A stretch of 51,879 bases of DNA from Polyangiales bacterium (lineage in GTDB: Bacteria > Myxococcota_A > Polyangia > Polyangiales > Ga0077539). The DNA lies in contig JBILLI010000001.1 of the NCBI GenBank assembly GCA_044376155.1, positions 1 to 51,879 of the forward strand, written 5' to 3'. Both the position numbers and the translations under genes were made by a program. Shown here in pieces: positions 6,961-10,302 of the stretch (its first letter is position 1; the number at the start of each line of letters is the position of its first letter). The notes beneath the pieces were generated by a model. The model saw only the letters and a program-made list of their open reading frames with translations. It searched no databases and had not been told where the DNA came from.

Positions 6961-9027
6961 GTGTCCGCGCGGCGCGATGATCTACCCTCTCGGGCCGTGA
7001 TCCGTCTGGAGGTCGAGCAGGGAGAGGCGAAGGGGCGGAGCTGCGAGCGCGAGGACGTCGCAGAGATCACCCTAGGCCGCGCCCCCAACAGCGACCTGCT
7101 GATCCCCGACTGGCACGTCTCGGGCGCGCACGGGGTGATCCGGGTAAACCGCGAGACGGCGAAGGTGATCTACCTCGATCGCCGGAGCACCAACGGCTCG
7201 CGCGTGCGTCGGGGCGGGGCGATCCTCACGGTCGACTCCACCGTCGGCTTCGAGCGCGAGCTGCTCCACGGCGACGAGCTGCTCCTGGGCGACCCGGAGC
7301 AGTCGGTGGTGGTGCGGGTCGCGGTGCGCTTCGAGGGCCCGCAGCACACCATGCCCGTGCTGCCCGTCACCGGCGCGATGCTCGCGATCACCGCGCGCGG
7401 GCCCGAGGCGCCGGTGGCCCCGCCGGCGCCCATCACGCCCCCCGAGCCCGAGGCCAAGGTGGTCGCCGTCCGCCCGGTCTCGTCGGTCGACGAGGCCCGC
7501 GAGGCGGTGGAGCGCGACCCCGTCACGCTCAAGACCCTGCTCACCTCCCTCCGCGCGCTGAGCGGCGCGCTCGACCTCGACGAGGTGGTCGAGGCCTCGG
7601 CCGCGGCGGTCTTCGAGGCCGTCCCCCGGGCCACGCACGTCACCGTGAACCTCCGCGACGACTCGGGCGACAAGCCCGTGTACGTGCCCATCACCACCCG
7701 CGTGCGCGGCAGCGCGGGCATCCCCAGCGAGGCGGTGCCCGTCAGCAAGAGCGTGGTGAAGAAGGTCATCGAGCAGCGCGCGGCGGTGCTCGCGGCCGAC
7801 GCCATGCGCGACGTGGGCGAGACGGCGTCGATCATGGGCGCGCGGATCCTCTCCACCATGGGCGTTCCCCTGTGGAAGGGCGACGAGATCCTCGGCGTGT
7901 TGCAGGTCGACAACCGCGCCTCGCCCGGGGTCTTCAAGGAGCGCGACCTCGACCTCTTGATGGTGGTGGCGCAGCAGGCGGGCCTCGCCTTCGCGAACGC
8001 GCAGCTCTATCGACGTCTCAAGGTCGCCGAGAGCAGCGCGCGCAGCGAGGCCACGTACCTCAAGCAGAAGGTGCAGAAGCGCTTCGAGGGGATGATCGGC
8101 GAGAGCAGCGCCATGCGGCATCTCTTCGAGAAGCTCGCGAAGGTCATCGACACCCGGGTCACCGTGCTCATCGAGGGCGAGACCGGCACCGGCAAGGAGC
8201 GCGTCGCGAGCGCGATCCATTACCAGTCCCGCCGCAAGGACCGGCTGTTCATCGCGCAGAACTGCGCGGCGCTGCCCGAGACCCTGCTGGAGGGCGAGCT
8301 CTTCGGGCACAAGAAGGGCGCGTTCACCGGCGCGGTGGAGGACAAGAAGGGTCTCTTCGAGCTCGCCGACGGGGGCACGCTCTTCCTCGACGAGATCGGC
8401 GAGATGCCCCTCGGGCTGCAGGCGAAGATCCTGCGGGTGTTGCAAGAGGGCGAGGTGCGGCCCCTCGGCGCCGCGGCGGTGCGCAGCGTGGACGTGCGCA
8501 TCGTGACCGCGACCAACCGGAACCTCGAGCAGGAGGTCGACGCCGGGCGCTTTCGCCAGGACCTCTACTACCGCCTGCAGGTGTTCCCGGTGCGCATCCC
8601 CGCGCTGCGCGAGCGCCGCGACGACGTGCCGCTGCTCGCGCACCATTTCCTCAAGCGGTACTCCGCGGAGCTCGGCAAGCCCGTCGCGGGCTTCTCGCAG
8701 CAGACGCTGGAGCTGATGATGTCCCACGCCTGGCCGGGCAACGTGCGCGAGCTGGAGAACGAGGTCCAGCGGCTGGTGATCCAGGCCGAGCCCGGGGGCT
8801 ACATCATGGCCGACCTGCTCTCGGCGCGGATCCGCAAGGTCGAGGGCATGCTCGACAAGATCCAGCCCCCGCGCGGCACCCTCAAGGACATGATCGAGCA
8901 CATCGAGAAGTGGCTCCTGATCGAGGCCCTGCGCGAGCACGGGAACAACAAGTCCGCCACCGCCAAGACCCTGGGGATCACCCGCGAGGGCCTGCACAAG
9001 AAGCTCAAGGGCTACGGCATCGGGTAG
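6961..9027 (+). CDS. Sigma-54-dependent transcriptional activator with N-terminal FHA and GAF domains
   Basis: FHA (ITLGRAPNSDLLIPDWHVSGAHGVI...STNGSRV), GAF, AAA+ (GETGTGKE Walker A, intact GAFTGA) and C-terminal Fis-type HTH (NKSATAKTLGITREGLHKKLK). The start is GTG 6961 or the in-frame GTG 6997 (VIRLEVEQG...). Confidence 0.9.
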   Translation: MSARRDDLPSRAVIRLEVEQGEAKGRSCEREDVAEITLGRAPNSDLLIPDWHVSGAHGVIRVNRETAKVIYLDRRSTNGSRVRRGGAILTVDSTVGFERELLHGDELLLGDPEQSVVVRVAVRFEGPQHTMPVLPVTGAMLAITARGPEAPVAPPAPITPPEPEAKVVAVRPVSSVDEAREAVERDPVTLKTLLTSLRALSGALDLDEVVEASAAAVFEAVPRATHVTVNLRDDSGDKPVYVPITTRVRGSAGIPSEAVPVSKSVVKKVIEQRAAVLAADAMRDVGETASIMGARILSTMGVPLWKGDEILGVLQVDNRASPGVFKERDLDLLMVVAQQAGLAFANAQLYRRLKVAESSARSEATYLKQKVQKRFEGMIGESSAMRHLFEKLAKVIDTRVTVLIEGETGTGKERVASAIHYQSRRKDRLFIAQNCAALPETLLEGELFGHKKGAFTGAVEDKKGLFELADGGTLFLDEIGEMPLGLQAKILRVLQEGEVRPLGAAAVRSVDVRIVTATNRNLEQEVDAGRFRQDLYYRLQVFPVRIPALRERRDDVPLLAHHFLKRYSAELGKPVAGFSQQTLELMMSHAWPGNVRELENEVQRLVIQAEPGGYIMADLLSARIRKVEGMLDKIQPPRGTLKDMIEHIEKWLLIEALREHGNNKSATAKTLGITREGLHKKLKGYGIG

Positions 9028-9071
9028 TGTCGCTTGACACCCGTCGCGCCGACGTGTTCTCACCCTTCGCG

Positions 9072-9386
9072 ATGTACCTCGGGCGCGTGATCGGCACCTG
9101 CGTCGCGACGGAGCGCGCGGCGGGACTCGACGGGGTGAAGCTCCTGCTGGTGGAGCCCGTGAACACCGCCCTCGCCCGCACCGGCGCGCCCTTCGTGGCC
9201 GCCGACACCGTGGGCGTGGGCGTGGGCGAGGTGGTCTTCCTCGTGGGCGCCCGCGAGGCGTCGCTGGCCCTCGATCCCAGCTTCGTGCCCGTCGACGCGG
9301 CCATCGTGGGCATCGTCGACGAGGCCACGCGGGTCGACGGCGCGAAGGAGTTCCTGCGCGGGCGCGACGACGGAGGCGCGGCGTGA
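9072..9386 (+). CDS. Bacterial microcompartment vertex pentamer protein (BMC-P, EutN/CcmL family), copy 1
   Basis: 104 aa. MYLGRVIGTCVATER...GVKLLLVEP...DTVGVGVGEVVFLVG...VDAAIVGIVDE matches the conserved blocks of EutN/CcmL. ATG at 9072, 44 bp after the activator stop. Confidence 0.85.
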   Translation: MYLGRVIGTCVATERAAGLDGVKLLLVEPVNTALARTGAPFVAADTVGVGVGEVVFLVGAREASLALDPSFVPVDAAIVGIVDEATRVDGAKEFLRGRDDGGAA

Positions 9387-9661
9387 AGCTCGCGAAGGTC
9401 GTCGGCACGCTCACCGCCACGGTGCACGAGCGCTCGTATGACGGGCAGACCCTGCTGCTGTGCGTCCCCGTGGGGGGCGACGGCGCGCCCGTGGGAGAGG
9501 TCTTCATCGCCGTCGACCGCGCGCAGGCCGGCGAAGGCGACACCGTGCTGGTGAACGCCGAGGGCGGCGGCGCGCGGCAGGTGTTCGGCATGAAGGCCAC
9601 CGACCGGCTCGCCATTCAAGACGTGATCGTCGGCGTGGTCGACGCGGTGACGGAGCGGTGA
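9383..9661 (+). CDS. Bacterial microcompartment vertex pentamer protein (BMC-P, EutN/CcmL family), copy 2
   Basis: 92 aa. MKLAKVVGTLTATV...QTLLLCVP...AVDRAQAGEGDTVLV...VIVGVVDAV. The GTG start overlaps the stop of copy 1 (GTGA at 9383-9386). Confidence 0.85.
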   Translation: MKLAKVVGTLTATVHERSYDGQTLLLCVPVGGDGAPVGEVFIAVDRAQAGEGDTVLVNAEGGGARQVFGMKATDRLAIQDVIVGVVDAVTER

Positions 9662-10302
9662 TGGAGGCGAAGGTCCGCGAAGAGATCGTGCGCGCGTCGC
9701 AGGAGATGGCCGCGCGGGGTTGGGTCGCCAACCACGACGGCAACGTGTCGGCCCGCGTCGCCAGCAACCGGCTGATCTGCACCCCCACGGCGACCCACAA
9801 GTCCCGCGTGCGCGCGCAGGACCTCGTGGTGACCGACGCCCAGGGCAAGCAGCTCTCGGGGCGCGGAAAGCCCTTCTCCGAGTTCGCGATGCACCTCGCG
9901 ATCTACAAGGCCCGCGGCGACGTCGGCGCCGTGGCCCACGCGCACCCGGCCTTCGCCACCGCCCTCGGCGTGAGCGGGCGCGAGCTCCTGTGCTTTCTCC
10001 CCGAGAGCGTGGTCTCGCTCGGCACCCGCGTGCCGCTCGTGCCGCTCGCCCCACCCGGCGCCGCCGCCGTGACTGCGATGGAGCCCTTCTTCAAAGACTT
10101 CGACGCCGTGCTCGTGGCGGGCAACGGGGTCTTCACCTGGGGCGATGACGTCGAGCAGGCGCTGCTGCGCCTGGAGCTCGTCGAGCACCTCGCCACCATC
10201 GCGTCGCACGCCTCGGCCTGGGGCGGCCCCCAGCCGCTGCCCCGCGACATGGTCGAGAAGCTCCTGGAGGCCCGCAAGAAGGCTTTCCCGCGACGCGCGT
10301 AG
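9661..10302 (+). CDS. Class II aldolase/adducin-domain protein (FucA/AraD-like)
   Basis: 213 aa. GWVANHDGNVSAR, FAMHLAIYKARGDVGAVAHAHP (His cluster), VLVAGNGVFTWGDD. ATG shares one nt with the BMC-P2 stop (TGATG at 9659-9663). Confidence 0.85.
   Translation: MEAKVREEIVRASQEMAARGWVANHDGNVSARVASNRLICTPTATHKSRVRAQDLVVTDAQGKQLSGRGKPFSEFAMHLAIYKARGDVGAVAHAHPAFATALGVSGRELLCFLPESVVSLGTRVPLVPLAPPGAAAVTAMEPFFKDFDAVLVAGNGVFTWGDDVEQALLRLELVEHLATIASHASAWGGPQPLPRDMVEKLLEARKKAFPRRA

Follow-up and report, generated by a model that had tools for sequence, protein, structure and literature searches.

A BMC-P/aldolase-family operon in an uncultured myxobacterium, probably a satellite of the type I HO microcompartment with a promoter of its own

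Gene content of the locus

The window, i.e., the whole 51,879-nucleotide (52-kb) stretch of DNA that was analysed, stems from an uncultured Polyangiales-like myxobacterium. A first-pass annotation had recognised in it four successive genes, coding for an FHA-GAF-sigma54 activator, two EutN/CcmL-type (BMC-P) paralogues and a class II aldolase-family protein, all of which are confirmed at the positions given here; two putative promoter elements are listed with them.

6961..9027, + strand: FHA-GAF-sigma54 AAA+-HTH enhancer-binding protein (Pfam domains); neighbour, rather than demonstrated member, of the operon
9034..9039, + strand: TTGACA, -35-like hexamer of the operon's own putative promoter, conserved across loci
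9057..9063, + strand: TTCTCAC, putative -10-like element, aligning with TGTAAC, TATAAC and TCTAAC in relatives
9072..9386, + strand: BMC-P paralogue 1 (P1), 104 aa (PF03319, 89.7 bits, E 1.8e-25)
9383..9661, + strand: BMC-P paralogue 2 (P2), 92 aa, GTG start (PF03319, 66.4 bits, E 3.4e-18)
9661..10302, + strand: class II aldolase-family enzyme, 213 aa (PF00596, 154 bits)

The family assignment of the two small proteins, for which a check against PF03319 had been proposed, is firm, as both score far above the gathering cut-off of 25 bits and each covers the whole 83-position model in the Pfam scan. Their relatives in the PDB are all BMC pentamers, those of P1 being 4i7a and 5v74, the latter from the shell of the HO (Haliangium ochraceum-type) microcompartment. 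The two paralogues share 34% identity (E 8e-10).

The junctions between the genes, as first described, are real. The TGA stop of P1 overlaps the GTG start of P2 (GTGA, 9383-9386), the TGA stop of P2 (9659-9661) shares one A with the ATG of the aldolase gene (9661-9663) in a TGATG overlap, and 44 bp, with no terminator-like hairpin, separate the end of the activator stop codon (9027) from the ATG of P1 (9072). The start/stop overlaps of the triad formed by P1, P2 and the aldolase gene are kept in relatives. Compared with these, dN/dS amounts to 0.20-0.38 for P1 and 0.21-0.44 for P2, with a range of 0.18-0.44 over all three genes, which are thus under purifying selection. P1 is, in addition, 100% identical across several independent metagenome contigs.

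Other shell genes were sought by three routes. In tblastn searches of the window with PduA and an HO BMC-H query, no match was better than E 0.26. The BMC-H proteins of related loci (45 sequences) were also turned into an HMM, which, run against all six-frame stop-to-stop segments of at least 40 aa, gave a best E of 0.35, whereas the matching BMC-P HMM retrieved exactly two genes, P1 and P2, from the same segments. Finally, Pfam scans of the larger ORFs of the window detected neither PF00936 nor aldehyde dehydrogenase. The initial observation that BMC-H and BMC-T genes are absent from the 52 kb therefore holds.

The upstream FHA-GAF-sigma54 activator

The protein encoded upstream of P1 comprises an FHA domain (residues 36-110), a GAF domain (203-344), a Sigma54_activat domain (378-544, E 5e-72) and a C-terminal HTH_8 (645-685). 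With an AAA+ core that harbours Walker A (GETGTGKE at 406) and GAFTGA (residues 453-458), followed by the HTH, it is by its sequence features a real sigma54 activator, and the FHA phosphothreonine-binding residues are present as well (GR39, SxxH54-57 and NG78). Gene calls on a near-identical contig (L001) set its start 12 codons later, at about 6997. Relatives sharing 65-87% identity are common in Polyangiales MAGs, and those at 66-75% usually lie downstream of a HEAT-repeat gene, of which no homologue was found in the window. A second FHA-sigma54 activator is encoded in the window at 49091-50632.

Promoter of the operon

The short gap in front of P1 contains a conserved element. In an 11-locus alignment, CTTGAC(A) is nearly invariant while its flanks are otherwise unconserved, and a TTGAC(A) -35-like box occurs 38-41 nt upstream of the first ATG in half of the loci (12/24), whatever the upstream gene, be it the activator, an opposite-strand RelA/SpoT gene, an ECF sigma factor gene or a hypothetical gene. 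A spacing of 17-18 nt separates this box from the -10-like element, which ends 8 nt before the ATG, so that the leader would be very short or absent. A promoter and terminator scan of 6700-10500 with the strict E. coli sigma70 consensus returned no sites and did not call the -10-like element; for this reason, it is from comparative conservation only that the promoter is proposed. On that footing, the operon appears to have its own conserved sigma70-like promoter inside the 44-bp gap. Transcription would proceed from TTGACA (9034-9039) and the -10-like element (9057-9063) with almost no leader, and the overlapping stop and start codons would couple translation of the three cistrons. As no terminator lies between the activator gene and P1, read-through co-transcription is conceivable in the lineage of the window. 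The satellite may be viewed as a portable cassette that brings along a conserved promoter and whose first gene has almost no leader, which could offer a concrete element for work on the regulation of the still-enigmatic HO organelle.

Relationship between the activator and the operon

The close spacing of the activator gene and P1, which share orientation, had led to the proposal that Ser/Thr kinase signalling and sigma54 govern the organelle. In its strongest form, this reading holds that the FHA-GAF-sigma54 activator, responding to Ser/Thr kinase and small-ligand input, acts directly on the BMC-P/aldolase operon to switch it on, and that the formation of the organelle is thereby under its control. 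The arrangement itself (co-orientation, 44 bp, no intervening terminator) and the intact GAFTGA, Walker A and FHA residues speak for it, and non-canonical action is possible for myxobacterial activators, as reported for PexR (PMC12754779). The neighbourhood is, moreover, common to two lineages with similar dS (0.34-0.47), so it did not arise by accident very recently.

The distribution of the pair nevertheless argues against a dedicated regulator. Activator and triad lie near each other only in the lineage of the window and in a single sister lineage (L086, L094 and L095), and in the latter a 365-aa RelA_SpoT gene on the opposite strand stands between the two. Beside 21 other myxobacterial triads, no Sigma54_activat homologue was found within up to 10 kb, and in MAG ABC2.122 the closest relative of the activator (75% identity) resides on contig 20, unlinked from the triad on contig 27. 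A conserved alternative regulator beside the triad was also considered and rejected, the upstream neighbours of these 21 loci being heterogeneous: seven encode a GYF/zinc-ribbon protein (Archangium clade), one an ECF sigma factor and one RelA/SpoT.

The promoter evidence points the same way. The -24/-12 element expected near the shell genes was searched for in front of P1 in the window and its relatives, and none was found. When the 300 bp preceding P1 were scanned for GG-N10-GC in 27 loci, nothing usable emerged, the best site within 300 bp of P1 matching 7 of 12 positions. The longer motif TGGCAC-N5-TTGCW, with up to two mismatches, has no match in 2127-11049, and over the whole window its 10 matches are fewer than the 16 expected from shuffles. 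The 44-bp gap is too small for an enhancer plus a promoter, and what is conserved there, in place of -24/-12, is the sigma70-like -35 box. A literature search for a link between microcompartments and sigma54 activators returned no relevant paper. The window itself encodes two sigma54 activators with an FHA domain. In M. xanthus, activators of this kind number 53 (PMC7910581), which makes chance adjacency plausible.

Taken together, the activator looks like a neighbour by lineage-specific gene order and not a dedicated regulator. Direct control of the operon by this protein is very improbable, and its control of the organelle could at best apply, with about the same small likelihood, to the narrow lineage of the window. 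A tempting but unsupported regulatory story is thereby removed.

The aldolase-family enzyme and its metal site

The third protein of the triad matches PF00596 over model positions 1-182 of 183. With regard to the reference metal site of FucA (E73, H92, H94 and H155, i.e., Glu and three His), it has Glu74, His93 and His95 in place, but Asn155 where the third His ligand would be, a substitution also seen in PDB alignments, where the window protein has N and both 2irp and 6btd have H. The GNVS phosphate-binding motif is retained. Among the 150 nearest representatives of clusters at 50% identity, 28 likewise have Asn at this position; it characterises the clade of the window and the Archangium clade, whereas His is found in the sister myxobacterial loci and in all non-myxobacterial loci examined. 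The protein misses all NCBIfam equivalog cut-offs, its best score being 106 bits against a threshold of 300, with 65-90 bits for FucA models that require 250-400. Models for ribulose-1-phosphate aldolase, epimerase, 3-oxo-tetronate-4-phosphate decarboxylase and MtnB give it similar scores.

The enzyme has no N- or C-terminal extension and no segment resembling an encapsulation peptide, so that its encapsulation is hypothetical. Its conserved C-terminal segment LLEARKKAF was considered as such a peptide and rejected, since in E. coli FucA, which the protein does not exceed in length, the aligned residues form the ordinary C-terminal helix.

With the third metal ligand missing, aldolase activity is an assumption. 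The locus could belong to the organelle without its PF00596 protein acting as a sugar-phosphate aldolase; the Glu-His-His-Asn site would then reflect a changed metal centre or another reaction of the family, such as that of a decarboxylase, a dehydratase, an epimerase or an oxygenase-like enzyme. The clade-wide replacement of His155, its frequency among the nearest clusters and the undiscriminating model scores are compatible with this possibility. Conversely, three ligands and the phosphate-binding motif are kept, and triads that are identical in other respects have either a His-type or an Asn-type enzyme in this place, a pattern suggestive of a common role. On balance, we regard a non-aldolase function as rather unlikely. 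Likewise rather unlikely, in our view, is a reading in which a sizeable subclade of the class II aldolase-family proteins associated with microcompartments, this one included, uses the Glu-His-His-Asn site for a different metal or reaction. Were this the case, the resistance of the HO organelle's substrate to prediction might be explained. The occurrence of this site in many myxobacteria should be weighed before FucA-like chemistry is assumed for that organelle.

Identity of the satellite locus

In the microcompartment catalogue that Sutter et al. published in 2021 (PMC8217296), satellite loci of the type I HO kind consist of two contiguous BMC-P genes and a pfam00596 aldolase gene, without BMC-H; of the 30 type I loci, 24 have the aldolase gene on the satellite, and Deltaproteobacteria are the main hosts of the HO type. 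The satellite is paired there with a main locus (PMC8217296), which would be expected to encode BMC-H and BMC-T, the third BMC-P, and an aldehyde dehydrogenase whose N-terminus carries an encapsulation peptide. The triad has this gene composition, with two adjacent BMC-P genes, the pfam00596 aldolase gene and no BMC-H in the locus. Its host also falls within the same group (Deltaproteobacteria/Myxococcota), the closest relatives of P1 and of the activator being found in Polyangiales, Myxococcales and Myxococcota MAGs. The P-P-aldolase order recurs in about 25 Myxococcota loci with BMC-H not nearby. In other phyla, the triad is embedded in complete metabolosome loci; in locus L053, PTAC, two BMC-H, BMC-P, AldDh, a PduS-like gene and BMC-T are situated directly upstream of it.

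These correspondences bear out the earlier suggestion that the genes form a satellite locus of a myxobacterial organelle. A competing view would be that the genome has no main BMC locus and that the triad is an orphan or a relic, its proteins being decaying or engaged in a role independent of a shell. The 52 kb do contain no other BMC gene, and the aldolase-family protein lacks both the canonical zinc ligand and an encapsulation peptide. Relics would hardly be expected to show the dN/dS values, the preserved overlapping codons and the identical P1 copies described above, and in the published catalogue the satellite comes paired with its main locus (PMC8217296). We consider the orphan or relic state highly unlikely for this combination of features. 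To our knowledge, BMC-P proteins have no function without a shell.

Most likely, then, 9072-10302 is a satellite operon of a type I HO microcompartment, with its own promoter and without the activator as a dedicated regulator. From what is known of these families, the two BMC-P paralogues would form pentamers capping the shell vertices, and a main locus in another part of the genome would supply the hexamers, trimers, third pentamer and aldehyde dehydrogenase. The aldolase-family enzyme would be the likely source of aldehyde, splitting a phosphorylated ketose into triose phosphate and an aldehyde that the aldehyde dehydrogenase then oxidises; its Glu-His-His-Asn site leaves room for chemistry that may differ from that of FucA.

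The organelle reading is not new, since the type I HO satellite already figures in the 2021 catalogue; the locus type being catalogued, the window holds no discovery in this respect. It represents one more uncultured myxobacterial example and, as it stands, matters little. H. ochraceum was not among the matches listed (80 loci, 120 proteins). Nothing on Hoch_4425 and Hoch_4426 was found in the literature or in the supplements of the catalogue, and our literature search found no newer functional work on the HO organelle.

Comparison with known systems

The closest counterpart is the published type I HO satellite itself (PMC8217296), with which the window shares a pair of neighbouring BMC-P genes, a pfam00596 aldolase gene just behind them, a position away from any BMC-H gene and a myxobacterial host. 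There is no essential difference between them, apart from the species, an uncultured Polyangiales-like one known here from 52 kb alone. About two thirds of the HO aldolases have no obvious encapsulation peptide (PMC8217296), as is the case for the window enzyme.

The activator resembles the FHA enhancer-binding proteins of M. xanthus described by Jelsbak, Givskov and Kaiser (2005, PMC549468) in its N-terminal FHA domain, GAFTGA-containing AAA+ core and Fis-type HTH. Like them, it belongs to a large family of myxobacterial paralogues, but its FHA domain and AAA+ core are separated by a GAF domain that they do not have.

The PVM, PVM-like, GRM5 and ACI microcompartments also encode a PF00596 enzyme together with shell genes, a class II aldolase that serves as their signature enzyme and is presumed to supply the aldehyde to the aldehyde dehydrogenase; in these systems, however, the aldolase gene belongs to the main locus and not to a satellite. 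All non-myxobacterial aldolases examined are of the His-His-His type, and many have C-terminal extensions, whereas the enzyme encoded in the window carries Asn155 and lacks an extension. Lastly, the CcmK3/CcmK4 satellite of beta-carboxysomes provides a parallel for shell paralogues that are encoded away from the main locus and expressed separately, with the difference that it consists of hexamer paralogues without an enzyme, and the window of vertex pentamers accompanied by one.

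Organisation of the BMC-P–aldolase operon

The operon comprises two EutN/CcmL-type (PF03319) BMC-P paralogues, P1 and P2, which share 34% identity, and a class II aldolase-family gene, and this triad lies behind an FHA-GAF-sigma54 activator:

4549–5865, minus strand, P450
5932–6927, minus strand, bestrophin-family channel
6961–9027, plus strand, activator, 688 aa, domains FHA, GAF, Sigma54_activat, AAA_lid and HTH_8
9072–9386, plus strand, P1, EutN/CcmL, 104 aa
9383–9661, plus strand, P2, EutN/CcmL, 92 aa, GTG start
9661–10302, plus strand, class II aldolase-family protein (PF00596), 213 aa
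10364–11155, downstream, DUF1275 membrane protein

The GTGA overlap of P1 with P2, the TGATG overlap of P2 with the aldolase gene and the 44-bp gap between activator and P1 were read in the sequence exactly where the first-pass annotation had placed them. No BMC-H or BMC-T domain was found in the 52 kb by tblastn or by a purpose-built HMM applied to all six frames of the whole window. Since gene identities, overlaps, gap and this absence all hold, the initial observation is accurate. Values of dN/dS between 0.18 and 0.44 for P1, P2 and the aldolase (against three relatives) indicate purifying selection on all three.

G+C content is about 73% across the window, whose larger ORFs match unrelated Pfam families, including a glycogen debranching enzyme, pyruvate phosphate dikinase, a kynureninase-like protein, a hybrid histidine kinase, a rhomboid, an ECF-like sigma factor, a phosphopantetheinyl transferase (PPTase) and TrmO. 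Large, internally repetitive proteins without Pfam match occur at about 33578–38185 (minus-strand matches) and 393–2591 (plus-strand matches), the GC3-based strand calls being possibly wrong; they are homologous (35–44% identity, E down to 1e-151) to a 1151-aa gene that follows an activator relative in the related locus L087.

Association of the activator with the triad

With GAFTGA, a Walker A motif and the GR, SxxH and NG residues of its FHA domain, the activator is a bona fide sigma54 activator. Its position had been taken to suggest that Ser/Thr-kinase signalling and sigma54 control the organelle. The adjacency is kept in the near-identical metagenome contigs L001–L005; in a sister lineage (L086, L094 and L095; P1 87–89% and activator 87% identical to the window), activator and P1 are separated by an opposite-strand RelA_SpoT gene of 365 aa. 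In the relatives that come next, P1 is directly preceded by a 90-aa hypothetical protein (L089–L091, P1 78%) or has an ECF sigma factor upstream (L092/L093, P1 71%), a different regulator-like neighbour in the place held by the activator in the window.

Genes upstream of the triad in related loci
L086 10045–11142 and L094/L095 303–1400, minus strand, small RelA/SpoT-domain gene, alarmone synthetase-like, divergent from the BMC-P operon
L092 9226–9963 and L093 683–1420, co-oriented, ECF sigma factor 38 bp upstream of the triad, Polyangiales-like lineage
L013, L017, L021, L022, L026, L028 and L030, GYF_2/zinc-ribbon protein immediately upstream of P1

When 2.5–11 kb upstream of each of 21 myxobacterial satellite triads was searched by tblastn, the activator was found in L086 only, and the other 20 showed no sigma54 AAA+ homologue. 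The ORFs immediately upstream of myxobacterial triads belong to unrelated families, none with Sigma54_activat. The only recurrent neighbour found is the GYF_2/zinc-ribbon gene, a co-oriented 540–690-aa protein that consistently precedes the triad in the Archangium/Myxococcaceae clade.

Many relatives of the activator (65–87% identity) are present in metagenome-assembled genomes (MAGs) of Polyangiales. In MAG ABC2.122, the closest (75% identity) sits behind a HEAT-repeat gene on contig 20 and the triad on contig 27; in another MAG, a 66%-identical relative likewise neighbours a HEAT-repeat gene, and no BMC genes lie close to it. The adjacency is thus narrow and not conserved. A second FHA-sigma54 enhancer-binding protein, with FHA and a GAFTGA-bearing AAA+ domain and no GAF, is encoded at 49091–50632 (plus strand), and two such activators in 52 kb show that the family is dense in this genome. 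Myxobacteria carry dozens of sigma54 activators and M. xanthus has 53 (PMC7910581), so that a chance adjacency is plausible; the FHA type has been on record in myxobacteria since Jelsbak et al. 2005 (PMC549468).

Putative promoter region of P1

Within 300 bp upstream of P1, the best GG-N10-GC site agrees with only 7 of 12 sigma54 consensus positions. TGGCAC-N5-TTGCW, allowing up to two mismatches, has 10 matches in the whole window against 16 expected, none of them in 2127–11049. The 44-bp gap contains instead:

9034–9039, plus strand, TTGACA, -35-like box
ending at 9063, plus strand, TTCTCAC, T-rich -10-like element, 17–18 nt after TTGACA and stopping about 8 nt before the P1 ATG

Across an 11-locus alignment with unconserved flanks, the CTTGAC(A) box hardly varies, and in 12 of 24 loci, whatever the upstream gene, TTGAC(A) stands 38–41 nt ahead of the P1 start codon (matching positions in L006, L008–L011, L014, L086, L089, L092 and L094); in the Archangium clade the box takes the form TTGCA. 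We infer a sigma70-like promoter within the gap in place of a sigma54 promoter. Such a promoter would be portable, and the first cistron would be almost leaderless, leaving no space for a Shine-Dalgarno sequence; only 8 nt separate the -10-like element from the ATG, and the triad is probably a self-contained, nearly leaderless operon. A strict consensus scan did not call the sigma70-like promoter in the gap. The activator gene is not followed by a terminator, so read-through transcription from it may occur in this lineage. Overall, with the adjacency unconserved among triads, no sigma54 promoter and a conserved -35 box, comparative and promoter evidence does not support kinase and sigma54 control of the organelle.

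The aldolase-family enzyme

Alignment to solved structures places Asn155 (codon at about 10123–10125) at the third Zn-binding residue of E. coli FucA, His155, whereas Glu74, His93 and His95 are retained. The substitution is shared by the window clade, the Archangium clade and a few other myxobacterial loci; five of the myxobacterial triads, and every non-myxobacterial locus examined, retain His. Among the nearest 150 cluster representatives (50% identity), 28 have Glu-His-His-Asn and 116 Glu-His-His-His, and Asn155 is a trait conserved within the subfamily and no artefact of sequencing. Many Glu-His-His-Asn representatives are 245–330 aa long, with C-terminal tails that are possible encapsulation peptides.

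The window enzyme falls well short of all NCBIfam equivalog cut-offs, with similar scores from aldolase, epimerase, decarboxylase and dehydratase models. It has no extension at either end; its C-terminal LLEARKKAF segment was rejected as a candidate encapsulation peptide, since in the alignment it matches the normal terminal helix of FucA. Minor leads are the Asn155 variant and the putative portable promoter.

Relation to the Haliangium ochraceum-type organelle

Most Haliangium ochraceum-type (HO) loci come from Deltaproteobacteria; at the type I main locus only shell proteins and an aldehyde dehydrogenase are encoded, a satellite-borne pfam00596 aldolase is present in 24 of 30 type I loci, and a C-terminal stretch that could be an encapsulation peptide is seen in only about one third of these satellite aldolases (Sutter et al., Supplementary Data 2, PMC8217296). 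The function of the organelle is still enigmatic in the literature, where our search found no newer functional studies. By analogy with established microcompartments, P1 and P2 would assemble into the vertex pentamers of a shell whose genes lie elsewhere, and the aldolase-family enzyme would yield an aldehyde consumed by the main-locus aldehyde dehydrogenase.

The same triad without BMC-H nearby was found in about 25 Myxococcota loci. Outside Myxococcota it sits within complete metabolosome loci, as in L053 (a Candidatus Eisenbacteria MAG), with PTAC, two BMC-H, BMC-P, aldehyde dehydrogenase, a PduS-like flavoprotein and BMC-T directly upstream. In L004, a 1624-bp Logan contig, P1 is 100% identical to the window, against 88% for P2 and only 73% for the aldolase; the contig is a recombinant cassette or else was assembled chimerically.

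The proposal of a satellite locus holds, and the assignment to this organelle is right, though it had been published before and is not new: the triad, with its nearest relatives in MAGs of Polyangiales and other Myxococcota, matches the published description of the type I HO satellite locus.
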